Shown here: positions 9,296-16,707 of the stretch, one piece after another | Layout of the letters: every line of letters starts with the position of its first letter | How positions within the stretch are numbered: position 1 is the stretch's first letter | IMG/VR virus record: IMGVR_UViG_3300034418_006582 | Location: 14,157 to 78,156 of that record | DNA from: a virus | Length of the DNA: 64,000 bases | Direction: 5' to 3' (one strand) | The notes under the pieces: generated by a model | What the model saw: only the letters and a program-made list of their open reading frames with translations | The model's database searches: none | Told to the model about the DNA's origin: nothing | Made by a program: the position numbers and the translations under genes

Positions 9296-9814
9296 ATGAG
9301 TGATGAAATAGAAATTATTGACTCGGTTGATGAAATTGATCGCAGCGGGAATACAGATATAGCTGTTGCGGATCAAGAGGATTTCGATATAGAGATTGTT
9401 GGTAGGCCAAGCAAATTAACCGATGACACAGTAAGGAAATTATCCTCTGGCTTGAAAATGGGTTTAAGTCAGAAAAAAGCAGCAGATTTTGCTGGAATAT
9501 CAGAAACTACTTTTTATAGGTGGCAAAGAGAGTTCCAGAAGATCGATAAGGCTTGTTTAGGTAACCCAGATCGTATAAATAACGCTGATGATCTCAATTT
9601 ATGGGAGTTTTGGCAGTCCTTAAAAAAGGCAAAGATCGAGGGCGAGCTTTCCCATATAGCTGTAATCACAGAGGCAGCGAATAATGGAGTATGGCAGGCT
9701 AGTGCTTGGTTCTTAGAGCGATCTAATCCACAAGATTGGGGTAAAGACAAGCGAGAACTTGAAGCTCATTCAGAGGGTAAGACAATAGAATTTAATATTA
9801 AATACAGTTCATAA
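9296..9814 (+). CDS. terS: Putative terminase small subunit (HTH)
   Basis: GRPSKLT-HTH N-terminus and WQASAWFLER..P..WG motif typical of terS-like phage proteins; upstream of terL. Confidence 0.6.
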   Translation: MSDEIEIIDSVDEIDRSGNTDIAVADQEDFDIEIVGRPSKLTDDTVRKLSSGLKMGLSQKKAADFAGISETTFYRWQREFQKIDKACLGNPDRINNADDLNLWEFWQSLKKAKIEGELSHIAVITEAANNGVWQASAWFLERSNPQDWGKDKRELEAHSEGKTIEFNIKYSS

Positions 9815-9815
9815 G

Positions 9816-9833
9816 TTTTCCGATATCGGAAAA
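9816..9833. promoter_or_regulatory. Perfect 18-bp palindrome TTTTCCGATATCGGAAAA
   Basis: Recurs at 62939-62954 (16 bp) and 15226-15235 (10-bp core). Confidence 0.5.
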
Positions 9834-9844
9834 GTGTTACACAA

Positions 9845-9948
9845 GACAAAAACCCTCCATTGCTGGAGGGCTTGTTGCCAGTAATACGAAAAAAAGGAGT
9901 CGTCCTGTGGTCTAGAAAGACCGAAGAGGACTCTTTTGATTCAGTACT
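9845..9948 (-). ncRNA. Candidate sRNA-1, complementary to the cassette leader and RBS
   Basis: TATGGT-N6-AGTA start; 5' stem; CCTTTTTTTCGTATTACT; CCCTCCA-GCAA-TGGAGGG-TTTTT terminator on the minus strand. Confidence 0.55.
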
Positions 9949-9997
9949 TATTTAACCATAAGTAGATTTATATGCAACAATATATTAAAATATTTTT

Positions 9998-10543
9998 ATG
10001 ACGGTAATACCTTTTCCTGATAAAAAATACAACATTATTTACGCAGATCCTCCCTGGTCATTTAAGAACTTTAGTAAAAAAGGCGAGGGTAGAAATCCTA
10101 ATCAGCATTATGCAACACAAGATCTGAACTGGATCAAGTCTTTACCTGTAAATGACATAGCTGATAAAGATTGTGTTTTATTTTTATGGGTAGTGAACCA
10201 CTCTTTACCACAGGCATTTGAAGTTATTGAAAGCTGGGGGTTTACTTACAAGACAGTAGCTTTCAACTGGGTTAAAAAAAATATGAAATCTGAGGGATTT
10301 TTCACTGGTTTAGGATATTGGACAAGAGGAAATCCAGAAATATGTTTATTAGCAACAAAAGGTAAACCAAGTAGAGTTTCTAAAGCTGTGAAAGAATTAG
10401 TAATAGAGCCTAGATCTAAACACAGCAAAAAACCAGACAGAATTAGAGATGATATTATTGACTTGTGTGGTGATCTCCCTAGAATTGAATTGTTTGCAAG
10501 GAATACGACTAAAGGATGGGATGTATGGGGGAATCAGATTTAA
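9998..10543 (+). CDS. MT-A70 family adenine methyltransferase
   Basis: IIYADPPW, HSKKP, RIELFAR, GWDVWGN. Confidence 0.92.
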   Translation: MTVIPFPDKKYNIIYADPPWSFKNFSKKGEGRNPNQHYATQDLNWIKSLPVNDIADKDCVLFLWVVNHSLPQAFEVIESWGFTYKTVAFNWVKKNMKSEGFFTGLGYWTRGNPEICLLATKGKPSRVSKAVKELVIEPRSKHSKKPDRIRDDIIDLCGDLPRIELFARNTTKGWDVWGNQI

Positions 10544-11073
10544 TACCTTTTCCAGAGAAAAAATATAATATTATTTATGCCGATCCACCGTGGTCTTATG
10601 ATTCAGGTTTTCTTAAAAGAAATTGGGACGGTAAGTACAATCAGATGAAACCACAGGAGATCTATGATCTACCAGTGCAAGATATAGCAGACGATAATTG
10701 TATTTTGTTTATGTGGATCACTTATCCTAAATTACTTATAGGTTTACAAGCTATGGAAAGTTGGGGATTCAAGTATCGCAGTGCAGCATTTACTTGGGTT
10801 AAAAGGAATAAGAAAGCAGACACTTGGTTTTGGGGTATGGGACATTGGACTAGAGCTAATGCTGAGGTCTGCTTTCTAGGTGTAAAAGGAAAACCTCAAA
10901 GAGAAAGTGCTAGTGTTCACTCAATCGTTGATGAAAGAATACAAGAACACTCAAAAAAACCAGATGTAGTTAGAAATAAAATTGTAGAGCTTTGTGGAGA
11001 TCTACCTCGTATAGAATTATTTGCAAGACAAAAAGTAGAGGGTTGGGATAGTTGGGGAAATGAAATTATTTAA
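10516..11073 (+). CDS. MT-A70 family adenine methyltransferase (tandem paralog)
   Basis: IIYADPPW, HSKKP, RIELFAR. Confidence 0.92.
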   Translation: MGCMGESDLIPFPEKKYNIIYADPPWSYDSGFLKRNWDGKYNQMKPQEIYDLPVQDIADDNCILFMWITYPKLLIGLQAMESWGFKYRSAAFTWVKRNKKADTWFWGMGHWTRANAEVCFLGVKGKPQRESASVHSIVDERIQEHSKKPDVVRNKIVELCGDLPRIELFARQKVEGWDSWGNEII

Positions 11074-11749
11074 TGGTGATTGTTTAGAAGTTATGAAAGA
11101 GTTACCAGATAACTCTATTGATTTAATTGTTACAAGTCCACCTTATGAAGATATTTCTGGTGCAGGATATCAAGCTAGTAACAAAGATATTCTATTTTTA
11201 AAGCTGTACTCAGAATTTATAGATCAAGTCTTTGAACAATACGCCAGGATCTTAAAACCTAACGGCCAGTTGTTTTTTAATATTAAAAGCAAAACAGCGC
11301 AAAAAAAATTAAGGACACCTCATTGGTTAGAATTTACAAATGCTTTTCAACAGCTTGATTTCAAAAGTTACATTATTTGGAAATATGCTGGTAGCTTTGA
11401 TAGTTCCAAAGCTAGATTCCATTTAGATTACGAAATTATATATCACCTTGCAAAAGGAGATGATATTTATTTAAACAGTGATTGTGGTATAGATGATCCA
11501 TTAACTTCTGTATGGTATGTACCACACAATATACCAAAAGCAGAAAGAATACACCCTACACAAATGCCATTAGCTCTGGCAGACAGAATATTAAAAATTG
11601 CCTCAAAACCAAACGATGTTGTTTTAGATAATTTTATGGGAAGTGGAACTACTGGTGTCGCTTGTATAAAAAACAATGTAGATTTTATTGGAATTGAATT
11701 AAACAACGATAATTACAAATTAGCAAAGGAGAGAATTGAAGCTATTTAA
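11060..11749 (+). CDS. Beta-class N4-C/N6-A DNA methyltransferase
   Basis: TSPPY...HPTQMP...DNFMGSGTT. Confidence 0.92.
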   Translation: MKLFNGDCLEVMKELPDNSIDLIVTSPPYEDISGAGYQASNKDILFLKLYSEFIDQVFEQYARILKPNGQLFFNIKSKTAQKKLRTPHWLEFTNAFQQLDFKSYIIWKYAGSFDSSKARFHLDYEIIYHLAKGDDIYLNSDCGIDDPLTSVWYVPHNIPKAERIHPTQMPLALADRILKIASKPNDVVLDNFMGSGTTGVACIKNNVDFIGIELNNDNYKLAKERIEAI

Positions 11750-12659
11750 TGGCGATTGTTTAGAGTTTATGGAAACTTTAGATCATTCTTCTGTTGATCT
11801 TATCTTATGTGATCTTCCCTATGGATTAATGAAAGATATAGGCAAAGATGATGGTAGATACACTAATGGTATGCTTGGAAAGTTTGATTGGGACAGCTCA
11901 ATAGATTTAGACAAGTTTTTTCTGATGTCGGAAAGATTACTAAGGGAATCAGGTAGATTAATACTTTTTGGAGTACAACCGTTTACAACAAACCTTATAA
12001 ATCATAGTTCTTATAATTTAAACTTTTCTTACACAATGATCTGGGAAAAGGATCACTTTGCAAACGCTTTTCAGGCTAAGAGAGCGCCTCTTAACTATTT
12101 TGAAGATATTATTGTTTTTACAAAAAGATACGACACCATGAACAATAATCCATTGCGACAATATTTTTCTTGGTTACAAAAACATATAGGTTGGAGTAAA
12201 GCAAAATTAATTTTAGAATTTGGACAAAGAATAGACCATACCTTTAGAACAGAAAGCACACAGTTCAAATTATGCACCGAAGAGGCTTATAACGATCTCA
12301 TTGAAAGATTCAACCTTGAAAATAACGAAAAATTTATTCCTTATAAAGAATTAAAAAAAATAAACAACAAGCATTTACAAACATTTAATTTAAAAAAAGG
12401 CGAAAAAATAAAAAGCAACATATTGAAATATCCTAGAGATGAGGAAAAAATACACCCAACACAGAAACCTGTTGATCTTTTAAAGGATATTATTTACAGC
12501 TTTACCAACAAAGGAGATCTTGTTGCAGATTTTACAATGGGTAGTGGCAGTACTGGAGTTGCAGCATTAGAATTAAAAAGAAATTTTATAGGATCCGAGT
12601 TAGATCCAGAGTTTTACGAAAAAGCAAAGGAACGAATTGATAACATTATTTCAAGGTGA
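11736..12659 (+). CDS. Beta-class N6-A/N4-C DNA methyltransferase with internal insertion
   Basis: CDLPY...HPTQKP...DFTMGSGST. Confidence 0.9.
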   Translation: MKLFNGDCLEFMETLDHSSVDLILCDLPYGLMKDIGKDDGRYTNGMLGKFDWDSSIDLDKFFLMSERLLRESGRLILFGVQPFTTNLINHSSYNLNFSYTMIWEKDHFANAFQAKRAPLNYFEDIIVFTKRYDTMNNNPLRQYFSWLQKHIGWSKAKLILEFGQRIDHTFRTESTQFKLCTEEAYNDLIERFNLENNEKFIPYKELKKINNKHLQTFNLKKGEKIKSNILKYPRDEEKIHPTQKPVDLLKDIIYSFTNKGDLVADFTMGSGSTGVAALELKRNFIGSELDPEFYEKAKERIDNIISR

Positions 12660-13299
12660 CGCTTTAGAAATATTAAAAGAAATGCAAGATGACTATGTAG
12701 ATCATGTTTTTACTAGTCCACCATACAATATTGGCAGAAGTAGATCTATACAATCAAAAGCAAAAGGTAAATATGAACATTTTGAAGATAGTAATGAAAA
12801 CTATTTTGATTGGTGTACAAAAATCATTGACCAGCTTTTAAGAGTTTCTAGTGGGTATGTTTTTTGGAATATACAAGCAAACTCACAAAATAAAAAAGAT
12901 GTTTTTAAACTAATAGGTCATTATGCAGATATTTTAGAACAAAACTTTATTTGGTATAAGCCTAATGCGACACCTAGTTCAAAACAATATTATGTTTCAA
13001 ATGTAGTTGAATATATTTTATGTTTTTCTAAATCTAAGGTAAAAGGAAATAAACATTTTTTAAGAAATCATGTTGAAATAAATAAAGGAACTAAGTATAT
13101 AAAAAACTTAAATGCACAAATGCCTCTTTCTTTAGCTGATCATTTTATTAAAAATTACACACAAAAGGGCGAAATTGTACTAGATCCTTTCTTAGGTAGT
13201 GGAACAACTGGAGTAGTTTGCATGAATAGACAAAGAAGTTTTATTGGTATAGAATTAGTACCAGAATATTTAGAAATAGCAAAAGAAAGAATCAAATGA
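12637..13299 (+). CDS. Beta-class N4-C/N6-A DNA methyltransferase
   Basis: TSPPY...DPFLGSGTT. Confidence 0.9.
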   Translation: MITLFQGDALEILKEMQDDYVDHVFTSPPYNIGRSRSIQSKAKGKYEHFEDSNENYFDWCTKIIDQLLRVSSGYVFWNIQANSQNKKDVFKLIGHYADILEQNFIWYKPNATPSSKQYYVSNVVEYILCFSKSKVKGNKHFLRNHVEINKGTKYIKNLNAQMPLSLADHFIKNYTQKGEIVLDPFLGSGTTGVVCMNRQRSFIGIELVPEYLEIAKERIK

Positions 13300-14906
13300 G
13301 ACTTGGCAGCATGTTTGCAGGTATTGGTGGTATAGAACTTGGCTTAGTTAGATCAGGACTTGTTACTGATGTCAAATGGCAAATAGATAACGATGAATTT
13401 TGTACAAAAATATTAAAAAAAAATTTTCCTGATAGTTTAGTTTTAAACAAAAATGTTGAGGAAATAAACACAAAAGATTTACCAGAGGTAGATATTATCA
13501 CAGCAGGTTTTCCTTGCCAGCCAGTAAGCGTGGCAGGAAACCAGAAAGGAGTATTAGATGAAAGATGGTTATGGGATGAAGTCGAAAGATTTATTAATGA
13601 GTTACGACCACCAGTCTTCATGTTGGAAAATGTCCCCAACATCCTCAGAGCAAGCAACGGAGAAGCCATTAATCGTGTCCTCAAAGGTGTGGCCGAAATG
13701 CGCCATTATAGATTTGAATGGCAACTTATATCAGCAAAGTTCGTTGGAGCAAGGCACAAAAGACAAAGATGGGTGGGAGTTGGAATCGTGGGAGACACCG
13801 AACACTATGGATCACTTGCCAGCGAGATCAGGGGACGCTTTGGAGAGAGCCTTGTATCGTGGAGATCCAGAGAGGAAGAGCAAAAGAAAATCTACTGGCA
13901 ACTTGCGAGAGAATCCGAAAATTTGGTTAACACCCACAACAATGGATCAGAAAGAGGACAGCCTGAAACACGCAACGAAACTCATGCAGGGGAAAACACG
14001 CAGAGCGACAGGTCACAGAATACAGAGAACTTTGAGCGATCAAGTCTGGATGGACATGATAGAAAAGGATCCGAGCCTAATGGAGTATTACCAGGATCAC
14101 GAGATAGTGAAACGACCAATGCTTCCAGATCAAATGGAGTTCGTGGAATATCTGAGGAGTCAGACATCAGCAACCAAACTTCAGAAATTGACAGGAATAA
14201 AGAAATCAACAGTGGATCATTGGTTCAGGAAAGACAAATACTTCAGTCATCCAACAGTGGATCAATGGATTCAGATCAAACCTCATCTACAGGAGATCAA
14301 ATACGACAAGGAATTGATGACAGTGGAAGTGATGGAGTGGAAAACCAAAGAGGAAATGGAGATGTGGCCGACACCATCGACACAGGACAACGAACACAAG
14401 AATTTGGAACTGAACGACAAGGGCAGGAGAGTAGCGAAAAGTGGGGGCGAGAGCAGATCCCTCAATCTAGCAGACAAAGTGCAAGTGAGGGAAAAGGAAA
14501 CTTTTTCGACACCAGCAGCAAGTCAAGCCTCAAAGCCAGTCAATCGCCATACCCCATCAGCGAGAGCAGGGAAACACGGCTCTACTTTGGAACAGGACAT
14601 TGGGGAACGAGATCCAACATTGATTGGCAAGCGCCTCAACCCAGCATGGGTGAACAGACTTATGGGTTACCCAGATGGTTGGCTGAACTTGGACTAACTA
14701 ACGATTGGGGAATTGATAGCGAGTGGGAAAAAGGACAAGAAAGAGTAGCTGAACGCAAAGATAATGATGTTGACAGACTTAAAGCTCTAGGAAATGGCGT
14801 AGTGCCACAATTCTCTGAGCTTGTAGGTCGATTAATCATCAGATCCATGATTGCAGAAACTTTAGTCTTTGATCCAGAAATCGTTAAGGTAGATCGTCCT
14901 CAGTAA
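13296..14906 (+). CDS. C5-cytosine DNA methyltransferase, large (alpha) chain
   Basis: FAGIGG (I), GFPCQ (IV), ENV (VI), HKRQR (VIII), LKALGNGVVP (X); low-complexity middle; no motif IX in this frame. Confidence 0.88.
   Translation: MRLGSMFAGIGGIELGLVRSGLVTDVKWQIDNDEFCTKILKKNFPDSLVLNKNVEEINTKDLPEVDIITAGFPCQPVSVAGNQKGVLDERWLWDEVERFINELRPPVFMLENVPNILRASNGEAINRVLKGVAEMRHYRFEWQLISAKFVGARHKRQRWVGVGIVGDTEHYGSLASEIRGRFGESLVSWRSREEEQKKIYWQLARESENLVNTHNNGSERGQPETRNETHAGENTQSDRSQNTENFERSSLDGHDRKGSEPNGVLPGSRDSETTNASRSNGVRGISEESDISNQTSEIDRNKEINSGSLVQERQILQSSNSGSMDSDQTSSTGDQIRQGIDDSGSDGVENQRGNGDVADTIDTGQRTQEFGTERQGQESSEKWGREQIPQSSRQSASEGKGNFFDTSSKSSLKASQSPYPISESRETRLYFGTGHWGTRSNIDWQAPQPSMGEQTYGLPRWLAELGLTNDWGIDSEWEKGQERVAERKDNDVDRLKALGNGVVPQFSELVGRLIIRSMIAETLVFDPEIVKVDRPQ
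13558..14697 (+). CDS. Nested alternative-frame C5-MTase subunit (motif IX plus 4 WxTP repeats)
   Basis: 379-codon open frame; AAGGAG RBS upstream; ends RLNPAWVNRLMGYPDGW (motif IX-like). Confidence 0.8.
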   Translation: MKDGYGMKSKDLLMSYDHQSSCWKMSPTSSEQATEKPLIVSSKVWPKCAIIDLNGNLYQQSSLEQGTKDKDGWELESWETPNTMDHLPARSGDALERALYRGDPERKSKRKSTGNLRENPKIWLTPTTMDQKEDSLKHATKLMQGKTRRATGHRIQRTLSDQVWMDMIEKDPSLMEYYQDHEIVKRPMLPDQMEFVEYLRSQTSATKLQKLTGIKKSTVDHWFRKDKYFSHPTVDQWIQIKPHLQEIKYDKELMTVEVMEWKTKEEMEMWPTPSTQDNEHKNLELNDKGRRVAKSGGESRSLNLADKVQVREKETFSTPAASQASKPVNRHTPSARAGKHGSTLEQDIGERDPTLIGKRLNPAWVNRLMGYPDGWLNLD

Positions 14907-15078
14907 GTTTAAAGTTAATAGCATGAAAATTAGCGTGTGATGAAACTTGCCTTATTCTTTTGTGTTTCTTTACTTTACCCCATTTGGCTTCATACAGAGA
15001 TTTACCATCTGTCATTCCTACTGCCATTTGAGTTAAGTAATCTTTTATATCTAACATAAGTTTTCCATAATAGAACAT
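14884..15078 (-). CDS. Hypothetical protein
   Basis: ORF only. Confidence 0.35.
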   Translation of the reverse strand: MFYYGKLMLDIKDYLTQMAVGMTDGKSLYEAKWGKVKKHKRIRQVSSHANFHAINFKLTEDDLP

Positions 15079-15297
15079 TTGTTCGATTTATAAAAACAAT
15101 TTATGTTAAAAATATGTTAAAAATATTTCACAAAATATTTAGATTGTGAAAAAATACAAAAAATTTGCTACAAAGTCGTTAAATTGTGAAATTGCATAAC
15201 AGTGCTTGCCAATCAGTGAATTTTTCCGATATCGGCTACATTGAAAAAAGCCCATAAACATTGACTTTGATTTTTTTTGTGTCCGAGTCACTTTCCT

Positions 15298-15390
15298 CGG
15301 AATTCCGCGGAATTCCGTGTGACACCACCTCGGAATTCCGTGGCTAGAGTAGAGTAGAGTAGAGAAGAGTAGACTAGAGTAGAGAAGAGT
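15298..15390. repeat. Origin-like repeats: CGGAATTCCG x3 plus AGAGT-like pentamer x9
   Basis: Palindromes at 15298, 15308 and 15331; pentamers 15346-15390; AT-rich tract 15085-15170. Confidence 0.7.
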
Positions 15391-15422
15391 ATATAATATA
15401 TATTAGAAAGGTCAGGTAAGAA

Positions 15423-15800
15423 ATGAATATTATGGTTAGTTTTGAAAGCACTGAAGATTATATCTTAAAAGCTGAAAATGAAACTGAAGCAATAAAAATA
15501 GTACAAATGATTTGGGATCATAAACAAGAATCACAAAACGATCTATTAAAGCAATATGACATAGATTACTCACTTGATGTTAGTAAGAAGTATGTTGAAG
15601 TAGAAGATCAAGAAGAAGACAATATTGTTTTAGATTATAAAGTCACATTTGTTATGACTGGAAAAAGTCCAGAAGATGCTATAGACAATTTCCACGAAAT
15701 GATGAAAGGTGGGCTAGACTATATACCACCAATTGTTGAGCCAGTTATAAATGATGAGTATGAACTTTTAACTGGGATCAAAGCAGAAGGGACAGCATAA
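15423..15800 (+). CDS. Acidic hypothetical protein
   Basis: ORF with RBS. Confidence 0.75.
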   Translation: MNIMVSFESTEDYILKAENETEAIKIVQMIWDHKQESQNDLLKQYDIDYSLDVSKKYVEVEDQEEDNIVLDYKVTFVMTGKSPEDAIDNFHEMMKGGLDYIPPIVEPVINDEYELLTGIKAEGTA

Positions 15801-15994
15801 TGGCAAGTGAATTTAATTTTCCAGCAGGAACAAAAAGAAAAGATGCACTGCATGAATTAATTGATTCTGATGATTTTATGGAAGTTGTTTTAAAACAATT
15901 TAATTACATGAGGATCAAAGGAATTAATTTAGTACAAGACGCAGATGATCTAGTAAATTTATATTTAAAAGTTTGCAAAGAAATTCCTGAGTAG
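15800..15994 (+). CDS. Hypothetical protein
   Basis: TAATG overlap with the upstream gene. Confidence 0.7.
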   Translation: MASEFNFPAGTKRKDALHELIDSDDFMEVVLKQFNYMRIKGINLVQDADDLVNLYLKVCKEIPE

Positions 15995-16006
15995 TATAAT
16001 TTTTTT

Positions 16007-16110
16007 GTATTCATCTATGGATCAATCCATAGTAAGCTGTAACAGAAAACGCCTTTCGTGTTACTGACTGAATAAGAAAGCGAGGTCTTCAACCACCTCG
16101 CTTTTTTATT
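16007..16110 (+). ncRNA. Candidate sRNA-2 with CCTTTCGTGTTACT
   Basis: TTGCAA-16-TATAAT promoter (15973-16000); CTATGG/CCATAG stem; AAAGCGAGGT/ACCTCGCTTT terminator. Confidence 0.55.
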
Positions 16111-16145
16111 TACCTTAAACTTTATAGGGATAGTCTATGATTATT

Positions 16146-16212
16146 AAGTCGGCTACTAAACCGACTTCCTCCCATCATCGGCTGTATCTAACGGTACAGC
16201 CTTATTTTTTTT
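16146..16212 (+). ncRNA. Candidate sRNA-6 with anti-SD seed TTCCTCCCATC
   Basis: TATGAT -10; AAGTCGG/CCGACTT stem; GGCTGTA/TACAGCC terminator plus U-tract. Confidence 0.45.
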
Positions 16213-16326
16213 AAGGATCTTTTTTTCTCTTGCTAAATCGTCTCGAATTTTTTTAGCAAGTCTTCTACGCTCTTTTCTGTTTAAAGTAGGTGCGTGATCT
16301 TTCTCTACTGTAAATATTTTCTTCAT
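16156..16326 (-). CDS. Basic microprotein (56 aa, not in ORF track)
   Basis: Hand translation MKKIFTVEKDHAPTLNRKERRRLAKKIR... Confidence 0.45.
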   Translation of the reverse strand: MKKIFTVEKDHAPTLNRKERRRLAKKIRDDLAREKKILKKNKAVPLDTADDGRKSV

Positions 16327-16383
16327 AATTTAAGAATACTAAAAGTTTTAAAAAAATCTTGCTTATGCTACTATGGAAAAACT

Positions 16384-16707
16384 ATGATTAAGAAAGTCGA
16401 TGAAAGTAACTTTAACGAAACAATTAATAGAGATGAAATTACCACTGTAGTTAAATTTGAAGCTGATTGGTGTATGCCATGCAAAGAAATTACGCCAGCA
16501 GTTGAATCTCTAAATCAGGAATGGAAAGACCGAAAGGTCGAATTTGTTGCTTTTGATATTGAAAGTGACACAAGCATTACTAATCAATACGGTATTTTCG
16601 GTGTACCAACTTTTATAGCTTTTCAGAATGGTCAGCCAGTTTCTGAAGTTCGTTCAAGAGTTAACATTGGAAATATTAAATCATCATTTGAAAAGTTCTT
16701 AGTCTGA
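16384..16707 (+). CDS. trxA: Thioredoxin
   Basis: WCMPC active site and VPT motif; start moved to MIKKV. Confidence 0.9.
   Translation: MIKKVDESNFNETINRDEITTVVKFEADWCMPCKEITPAVESLNQEWKDRKVEFVAFDIESDTSITNQYGIFGVPTFIAFQNGQPVSEVRSRVNIGNIKSSFEKFLV

Follow-up and report, generated by a model that had tools for sequence, protein, structure and literature searches.

The window analyzed here is a 64,000-nucleotide stretch from an uncultured phage, taken from the IMG/VR virus record IMGVR_UViG_3300034418_006582 (positions 14,157 to 78,156 of that record). It carries a locus predicted to encode a C5 cytosine DNA methyltransferase (C5-MTase) in two overlapping reading frames of the same strand, and all features given below lie on this + strand. 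The outer open reading frame (ORF), which we term alpha, spans 13296..14906 and specifies 536 amino acids (aa). The inner ORF, beta, lies wholly within it at 13558..14697 in the +1 frame and specifies 379 aa. In solved C5-MTases, as the published account of their domain structure describes them, the large domain consists of motifs I to VIII together with motif X, and the small domain consists of a variable region and motif IX (PMC3404938). The two frames of this locus divide along the same line, with alpha carrying the large-domain pieces (motifs I to VIII, then X) linked by read-through filler, and beta carrying an N-terminal docking part, four cassettes and motif IX. The locus therefore probably encodes a two-polypeptide C5-MTase in which alpha provides the large catalytic domain and beta the small target-recognition domain (TRD).

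Motif I of the outer frame, FAGIGG (13314..13331, aa 7-12), and motif IV, GFPCQPVS with the catalytic Cys (13506..13529, aa 71-78), are invariant among 18 relatives. They are followed by motif VI, ENVPN (13626..13640, aa 111-115), by the motif VIII region, RHKRQRWVGVG (13752..13784, aa 153-163), and, 3' of the inner stop, by motif X, LGNGVVPQ (14787..14810, aa 498-505). The outer protein matches Pfam family PF00145 at 1.4e-45, and its aa 2-159 align with residues 13-166 of M.HhaI (E 4.4e-19). In an AlphaFold2 model of the outer chain, aa 1-166 are folded, with block values of the predicted local distance difference test (pLDDT) mostly between 75 and 86, and a helix is present at aa 502-520. 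A Foldseek search with the folded part retrieves M.HhaI (2z6q_A) at E 2.7e-12 over 167 columns with 29% identity. By motifs I, IV, VI and VIII and by its large-domain fold, the locus is thus assigned to the predicted C5-MTases. Motif X is on the outer chain, and motif IX is not on the core polypeptide and is found only in the +1 frame.

The filler of the outer frame (13791..14696, about aa 166-467) is open, poorly conserved and predicted to be disordered. Block pLDDT values fall to 25-42 across aa 167-482, and aa 166-455 are rich in S, G, E, R and Q, with 19% hydrophobic residues compared with 44% in the core. On the reading proposed here, the only reason for such a segment would be that translation has to cross the beta gene before motif X is reached.

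The inner frame begins with an ATG that is preceded, 6 nucleotides (nt) 5', by the Shine-Dalgarno sequence AAAGGAG (13545..13551), which itself falls within outer codons for a conserved QKGV. A scan of 9500-16500 for promoters and terminators gave no support for an internal promoter: promoter-like sites numbered 22, where 25.9 were expected, and terminator-like sites numbered 4, where 3.7 were expected. Between the docking part and motif IX, the variable region of beta is divided into four units of 45, 147, 46 and 43 aa. Cassette 1 (13789..13923) starts with WETPNTMD, a type also present in distant family members, and has its WETP head at aa 78-81. Cassette 2 (13924..14364) starts with WLTPTTMD (WLTP at aa 123-126) and contains an HTH-like (helix-turn-helix) insert, cassette 3 (14365..14502) starts with WPTPSTQDNEH (WPTP at aa 270-273), and cassette 4 (14503..14631) starts with FSTPAASQASKP (FSTP at aa 316-319). 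The last of these positions, 5' of motif IX, is occupied by a cassette of this kind in 40 of 45 loci. Motif IX itself, RLNPAWVNRLMGYPDGWL, lies at 14632..14685 (aa 359-376) and lines up by eye with the motif IX of M.HhaI as printed by HMMER (...RKLHPRECARVMGYPDSY). The motif IX end is 44-47% identical to the +1 frames of the MTase genes of Bacillus phage yong1 and Paenibacillus phages, and aa 264-376 of the inner protein match phrog_1008 at 5.8e-8. A match to Period_C (E 0.008, below the cut-off) was dismissed as spurious. Thus the elements that the first-pass annotation had recognized, namely motifs I-VIII and X around filler-like sequence in the outer frame, and a ribosome binding site, a motif IX-like end, the repeats WETP, WLTP, WPTP and FSTP and an HTH-like sequence in the inner frame, are all present at the places it gave.

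The insert in cassette 2 resembles an Xre/Cro-like HTH domain (14116..14334, inner aa 187-259) and contains LQKLTGIKKSTVDHWF at aa 208-223. When the inner chain is modeled alone by AlphaFold2, the mean pLDDT is 43 and only aa 190-255, within this insert, are confident (block pLDDT 83-94). Nearly all of the top 50 rows returned by VIA-align for the HTH part are Xre/Cro/cI-type HTH domains. The best is the CapH N-terminal domain 7t5u_A (Z 5.2, root-mean-square deviation 2.4, 59 aligned), and C.AhdI 1y7y_B (Z 4.5) is a further example; Z is at most 5.2 in every row, and values of this size can reflect a common arrangement. Pfam HTH models match beta only below the cut-off (HTH_28, E 0.23). A piece of about 60 aa from this region (14116-14334) is also 50% identical, at E 5e-9, to an insert in the N6/N4-MTase of Twort-like Staphylococcus phages. 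The case in hand is phage Alsa_4 (OR354823.1, L001 1922-3064), and the enzyme is an N6/N4 adenine- or cytosine-amino methyltransferase. To judge from this similarity, the HTH-like piece appears to be a portable DNA-binding submodule common to two methyltransferase classes.

The first-pass annotation had reported 1140 bp open in two frames, and this observation holds: over the 1137-nt overlap there are no stops in either the outer or the inner frame, whereas the third frame contains 28 and each of the three reverse frames 13-19. To assess whether such openness could arise by chance, we used three null models with 3000 trials each. When the inner protein was held fixed and synonymous codons were redrawn by phage codon usage, the outer frame acquired a mean of 40.6 stops (minimum 25). 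Redrawing the codons by the gene's own usage gave a mean of 17.8 (minimum 7), and shuffling the codon order gave a mean of 21.0 (minimum 9). None of the 3000 trials under any of the three models left the outer frame without stops, and chance or composition is thereby ruled out as the source of the double open frame. In the converse null, in which outer codons were shuffled, the inner frame acquired a mean of 11.8 stops (minimum 5), and again 0 of 3000 trials reached zero. A sequencing or assembly error is likewise ruled out, as the same layout is found on dozens of independent metagenome contigs.

The overlap also differs in composition from its surroundings. The GC content across 13500-14800 is 45-51%, compared with a background of roughly 30-35%, A is in marked excess over T, and T occupies only 16% of the third positions of inner codons. 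The excess of A over T and the low T at inner position 3 are what the avoidance of TAA, TAG and TGA in the partner frame calls for.

A comparison of substitutions between the window and six relatives of the same architecture distinguishes two regimes within the overlap. In the filler stretch, changes concentrate at the third position of inner codons (for L009: 57, 35 and 118 changes at positions 1, 2 and 3), and identity is 72-78% in the inner frame and 50-54% in the outer. The inner frame is thus the real coding frame in this stretch, and the outer frame is merely kept open. Inner aa 1-77, the docking part, lie over outer aa 88-165, the portion of alpha that follows motif IV and extends to motif VIII. 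Here the 231 nt contain no more than 10-16 changes, and identity is 88-96% in each of the two frames. This segment, 13558..13788, is a case of true dual coding, with both frames constrained.

A natural control for these effects is provided by the HTH-bearing module, designated B, which is encoded in the inner frame of some loci and in the outer frame of others. This module is shared, at 53% identity (E 8e-53), by beta of the window and the outer chain of L035. In the window, where the DNA for module B is dual-coded, its GC content is 43%, its T content is 18%, and the stops by frame number 0, 14 and 0. In five relatives, the module lies behind the inner stop and the outer frame alone codes; here the GC content is 28-33%, the T content is 25-28%, and the other frames contain 11-17 and 18-25 stops. 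The shift in composition therefore results from the requirement for read-through and is not a sign of foreign DNA. A foreign origin of the GC-rich stretch is ruled out, since the same module is AT-rich where a single frame codes.

The nested layout is not peculiar to this phage. We searched for viral loci with the inner protein and scored a nested pair where two ORFs of at least 450 nt were present, one of them carrying motifs I and IV and sharing at least 300 nt with the other. Of the 63 viral loci found, 50 have such a pair; the offset is always +1, and the outer tail contains the motif X pattern in 49 of the 50. Within the marine clade, a set of 45 loci that includes the window, the outer frame contains no stops in the overlap of any locus (45/45), while the third frame contains 1058 in total, at 13-39 per locus. 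An SD-like site (resembling a Shine-Dalgarno sequence) and an ATG mark the inner start in all 45 loci. The overlap ranges from 417 to 1140 nt in this clade, and that of the window is among the longest. Outside the clade, the nested layout occurs in Bacillus phage yong1 and in Paenibacillus phages Lilo and Tadhana. It is also found in the actinophages Gudmit and Kenuha5, where a +1 ORF encodes the docking part together with LLPTP-headed units, and further units, motif IX and motif X are in the annotated outer frame. The point at which coding returns to the outer frame thus differs between clades. Gordonia phage Gudmit (L068 799-1536) and Mycobacterium phage Kenuha5 (L069 1141-1554) are each annotated with one "DNA methylase" coding sequence.

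Twelve of 16 bacterial or archaeal loci have the nested layout as well, among them Thermomicrobiales, Actinoplanes, Planctomycetes and a Methanoregula metagenome-assembled genome (MAG). In the Methanoregula sp. MAG contig (L072 1032-1966), the outer frame contains motifs IV, VI and X, and the inner frame, again at +1, contains motif IX and three x-T-P heads. A profile of the inner protein recovers 2842 representative clusters at E<=1e-3. Among the best 150 representatives, the median length is 270 aa, and hidden Markov models (HMMs) of the catalytic core and of the motif X tail match only 8/150 and 18/150, respectively. Nested coding is therefore a trait of the family. Close relatives of the inner protein are named "hypothetical protein" or are left unnamed in the source databases. 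Among the protein sequences are also four of 490-660 aa (P0057, P0103, P0111 and P0152), seen as protein sequences only, that contain the docking part, many cassettes and a motif IX plus X tail without the catalytic core. To judge by these parts, they may represent a third way to split the enzyme.

We infer that both chains are made and assemble. A structure prediction of the complex, which the first-pass annotation had proposed as a check on its heterodimer, is favorable as far as prediction goes. ESMFold2 gave alpha plus beta interaction prediction scores from aligned errors (ipSAE) of 0.87, 0.87 and 0.86, compared with 0.00 for the best of 3 controls, a mark that 116 of 157 solved complexes reach and that only 2 of 215 mismatched pairs reach. 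The runs have at least 37% of contacts in common, and the pLDDT of the partner is at least 57. Two interfaces are predicted. In one, inner aa 16-67 contact outer aa 117-154, and in the other, inner aa 355-379, which include motif IX, contact outer aa 10-15, 38-43 and 459-530 in the regions of motifs I and X. The cassettes (inner aa 78-354) make no confident contact with alpha in the model, which is compatible with DNA-facing, mobile elements but is no proof of them. Together with the 45 of 45 open loci, the SD-like site and ATG in each of them and the pattern of substitutions, this model supports the earlier proposal of a nested two-chain heterodimer.

The proposed enzyme can be described from these predictions as follows. 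Alpha would be exactly the large domain, with its two pieces tied together by the filler. Beta, initiated at its own Shine-Dalgarno sequence and ATG, would be exactly the small target-recognition domain. Its N-terminal part would dock on the motif VI-VIII face of alpha, and its motif IX would pack on the regions of motifs I and X. The middle of beta would form a string of cassettes of about 45 aa headed by W/F-x-T-P, one of them with the Xre-like HTH domain. What is an insertion between motifs VIII and X in a single-chain enzyme would here have become a separate chain in another frame.

This arrangement recalls that of M.EcoHK31I from E. coli (YGGCCR; Lee, Kam and Shaw 1995), a heterodimeric C5-MTase of a type II restriction-modification (R-M) system. 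According to the descriptions available for it, the gene for its small chain lies wholly inside that for the large chain in another frame, both chains are needed for activity, motifs I-VIII and X are on the large chain together with the TRD, and motif IX is all that the small chain contributes (PMC2836561, PMC3404938). The first-pass annotation had invoked this enzyme as a precedent, and the analogy survives for the gene layout, as in both cases the nested gene lies wholly within the other in another frame, the small chain carries motif IX, and the large chain carries motifs I-VIII and X. It fails for the split. By the same descriptions, the TRD of M.EcoHK31I is on the large chain, whereas the nested chain of the window holds the whole variable region (docking part, four cassettes and HTH) in addition to motif IX, and on its outer chain motifs VIII and X are separated by nothing but filler, with no TRD. 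The setting differs as well, being a type II R-M system there and a phage battery of six methylase genes here, with no nuclease recognized in the ORFs scanned. M.AquI (CYCGRG) is also described as a two-polypeptide C5-MTase, whose second chain comprises motifs IX and X (PMC3404938). As far as that description goes, M.AquI and the locus of the window both have their break inside the variable region or close to it, which leaves two chains that have to come together. In the window, however, the first chain retains motif X, and the second gene is contained in the first rather than just overlapping it.

Closer relatives exist among phages. The inner ORF of Paenibacillus phage Tadhana (MG727700.1), annotated in GenBank as a second "DNA-cytosine methyltransferase", encodes a protein that matches phrog_1008 ("DNA methyltransferase") at 1.6e-74 and has three W-x-T-P heads and a LNPDWVECLMGFPIGW end. 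This is the same beta-type protein in the same +1 nesting, although the beta of the window is longer, contains the HTH-bearing cassette and lacks a long N-terminal region that is present in the Paenibacillus type. A paper on Paenibacillus phages lists two cytosine methyltransferase genes and, in the text that deals with them, does not comment on their nesting (PMC6070908). In a literature search on nested phage C5-MTases, from which subscription journals and REBASE were outside the scope, no description of the family was found. M.EcoHK31I is the sole published nested precedent that was found, and it is split differently.

A second comparison concerns the cassettes. M.SPRI, M.Phi3TI, M.Rho11sI, M.H2I and M.SPBetaI of temperate Bacillus phages are reportedly multispecific single-chain C5-MTases in which a separate specificity has been proven for each unit. 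Like the enzyme proposed here, they are said to be phage-borne anti-restriction enzymes whose variable region, between motifs VIII and IX, is enlarged and consists of short units in tandem; the number and order of these units differ from one relative to the next. SPR-type enzymes have TRDs of about 40-50 aa. The Bacillus enzymes are encoded as a single chain in one frame, whereas the window uses two; on the coding strand of the SPbeta MTase gene, no other frame is open over a long stretch. The units of the window also differ in having a strong W-x-T-P head and in occurring on either of two chains in the family, and the recognition units of the Bacillus enzymes have no sequence relatedness to them that is detectable by tblastn at E <= 1e-5, a short T-L / T-P core being the sole likeness.

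To describe how the cassettes vary, we split the proteins at W/F/Y-x-T-P/A heads, which yielded 167 segments in the 45 marine-clade loci. These segments fall into 7 types and 12 architectures. Type A is WETPNTMD; B is W(L/R)TPTT followed by the HTH domain; C is (F/W/Y)STP.ASQ and runs into motif IX; D is WPTPSTQDNEH; E is FPTAAARD; F is FGTPLTSSERPS; and G is YPTPSSSEHKY. Two of the roughly 20 units of the 1214-aa relative P0012 are of the WETPNTMD type of the window. The most common architecture is that of the window, ABDC on the inner chain with no cassette in the outer tail (15 loci), followed by AC with BF in the outer tail (8 loci), AC with E in the outer tail (5 loci), ABC with none (4 loci) and DA with BE (4 loci). 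Seven rarer architectures account for the remaining 9 loci. Alignments of relatives contain clean gaps of whole units, and units are gained, lost and reordered. In 19 loci type B belongs to the inner chain, and in 16 it lies in the outer tail; each of the 150 best representatives has 0-11 heads. Cassettes thus turn over among relatives, and this turnover includes transfer between chains. The first-pass annotation had called the repeats swappable, a description that these counts of types and architectures, and the presence of the HTH module on either chain, bear out.

What the cassettes do is less certain. The second head of the window reads WLTPTTMD, which has some likeness to the T-L core of canonical TRDs. 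The 250-257 loop of M.HhaI reads target bases, and HMMER aligns M.HhaI ...GIAITLSAYGGG with the SPbeta enzyme ...GLSPTLTTMGGG, a sub-alignment that is weak alone. On the strength of such resemblances, it is plausible, although short of probable, that the heads of the cassettes are counterparts of the T-L core in canonical TRDs and that several cassettes confer several targets. We put forward a broader version only tentatively. Each cassette would be self-contained and would present its own recognition loop at a shared catalytic center, so that one enzyme might methylate several unrelated targets, up to four in the case of the window. The family would then constitute a plug-in anti-restriction platform of 1 to about 20 cassettes carried on either chain, and the nested +1 gene would be ancient and would cross phyla.

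A number of results weigh against this picture, some against multispecificity and others against the two-chain scheme itself. Type A is present in 44/45 loci and the cassette adjacent to motif IX in 40/45, and these two near-constant types may be structural. A tblastn search of 50,697 phage records with the inner protein (E <= 1e-5) returned 11 records, none of them from the SPbeta group, and the likeness between T-L and T-P as read from the sequences rests on few residues. The inner protein matches no family in Pfam or NCBIfam, and neither it nor its profile finds a relative in the PDB by sequence (the best hits were to CTB10, E 0.76, and to ribosomal eL31, E 0.38). AlphaFold2 assigns no confident fold to the cassettes or to the N-terminal docking part when beta is modeled alone. 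The favorable score of the complex may stem from likeness to solved single-chain C5-MTases, because alpha and beta are in effect halves of a known solved fold; the score shows likeness, not binding. Finally, the layout is not obligatory. Thirteen of the 63 viral loci have no pair under the length criteria, some of them being cut by contig ends. Four of the 16 genome loci are non-nested (two single-frame, one tandem split and one partial). In P0012, the core, about 20 W-x-T-P units, motif IX and motif X all lie in one frame of a single chain, and L074 is another single-chain relative.

Several of these observations could be accommodated if the enzyme has two chains but a single target, with the cassettes forming one extended DNA-binding small domain or, like the HTH for example, assisting affinity, processivity or tethering. 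We consider this possible without regarding it as the likely outcome. It would account for the near constancy of two cassette types over 45 loci, for the smallest relative, L049, which still has two heads, one per chain, for the predicted lack of structure in isolated cassettes, and for the lack of similarity by tblastn to characterized multispecific TRDs. An interlocked domain is nonetheless hard to reconcile with the way in which entire cassettes are cleanly gained, lost and reordered between proteins that are otherwise 60-80% identical. Nor does it sit easily with the placement of a cassette on either chain, or with a cassette count that varies between 0 and 11 among the best 150 representatives and is as high as about 20 in P0012. 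In size, the cassettes also match the TRDs of SPR-type enzymes, at about 40-50 aa.

Other explanations dispense with the second chain altogether. If ribosomes were to shift from the outer to the inner frame after motif VIII and back after motif IX, a single polypeptide would result whose motif order over frames 0, +1 and 0 is the canonical I-VIII, TRD, IX and X, and single-chain relatives such as P0012 and L074 do exist. Such a product would need neither an open outer frame nor the first 77 aa of the inner frame, yet the outer frame is free of stops in 45/45 loci and the inner N-terminus is conserved, has its own Shine-Dalgarno sequence and ATG in 45/45, and is a predicted docking surface. Two shifts per message would, moreover, be very inefficient, and we judge this route very unlikely. 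It is harder still to believe that only the outer frame is expressed, with the inner ORF being a side effect of composition, a degraded remnant or an artifact of assembly. Databases name inner-type proteins only "hypothetical protein", and the absence of a Pfam family for the inner protein would suit such a view. The inner frame is, however, the better conserved of the two in the filler stretch and carries the motif IX that the outer frame lacks. The appearance of inner-frame stops in every one of the 3000 shuffles of outer codons (mean 11.8, minimum 5) and the recurrence of the layout on dozens of independent metagenome contigs argue in the same direction. A heterodimer of alpha and beta, each made from its own frame, is the reading that we retain.

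The gene stands at the end of a series of methyltransferase genes. Two MT-A70 genes (9998-10543 and 10516-11073) and three N6_N4_Mtase genes (11060-11749, 11736-12659 and 12637-13299), all assigned by Pfam, precede it on the + strand. Each of these five amino-methyltransferase genes (9998..13299) overlaps the one that follows it, and the stop codon of the last N6_N4_Mtase gene overlaps the outer ATG of the C5 gene as ATGA. Six methyltransferase genes in a row (9998-14906) make an unusually dense battery for a 78-kb phage. A scan of the neighboring ORFs recognized no nuclease; apart from a thioredoxin gene (PF00085, 1.3e-21) at 16294-16707, 3' of the methylase block, the downstream ORFs match no Pfam family, and the small ORFs are unassigned. 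A methylase battery without a recognized nuclease nearby fits an anti-restriction role for the phage. As the sixth gene of this battery, the two-chain enzyme would likely contribute to self-methylation against host restriction.

Bacterial C5-MTases are usually presented as single chains, with M.AquI and M.EcoHK31I treated as curiosities in the account that discusses them (PMC3404938). The locus described here belongs to a very large phage and prophage family (2842 representative clusters for the nested chain) in which the catalytic and DNA-reading domains are probably two proteins from overlapping frames. In most cases databases list the outer gene alone, and the product of the inner one is called hypothetical. 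The locus also offers a clean, natural instance of extended dual coding on the same strand and has a built-in control, in that a module is dual-coded or single-coded depending on the phage. The window contributes the cassettes within a nested chain, the movement of one cassette type between chains, and the comparison of dual- and single-coded versions of the same module. If the cassettes are independent recognition units, they would explain how one enzyme allows a phage to escape many restriction systems, and they would offer a modular scaffold for the engineering of methylation specificity. Specificity would then also be readable from cassette content in metagenomes.

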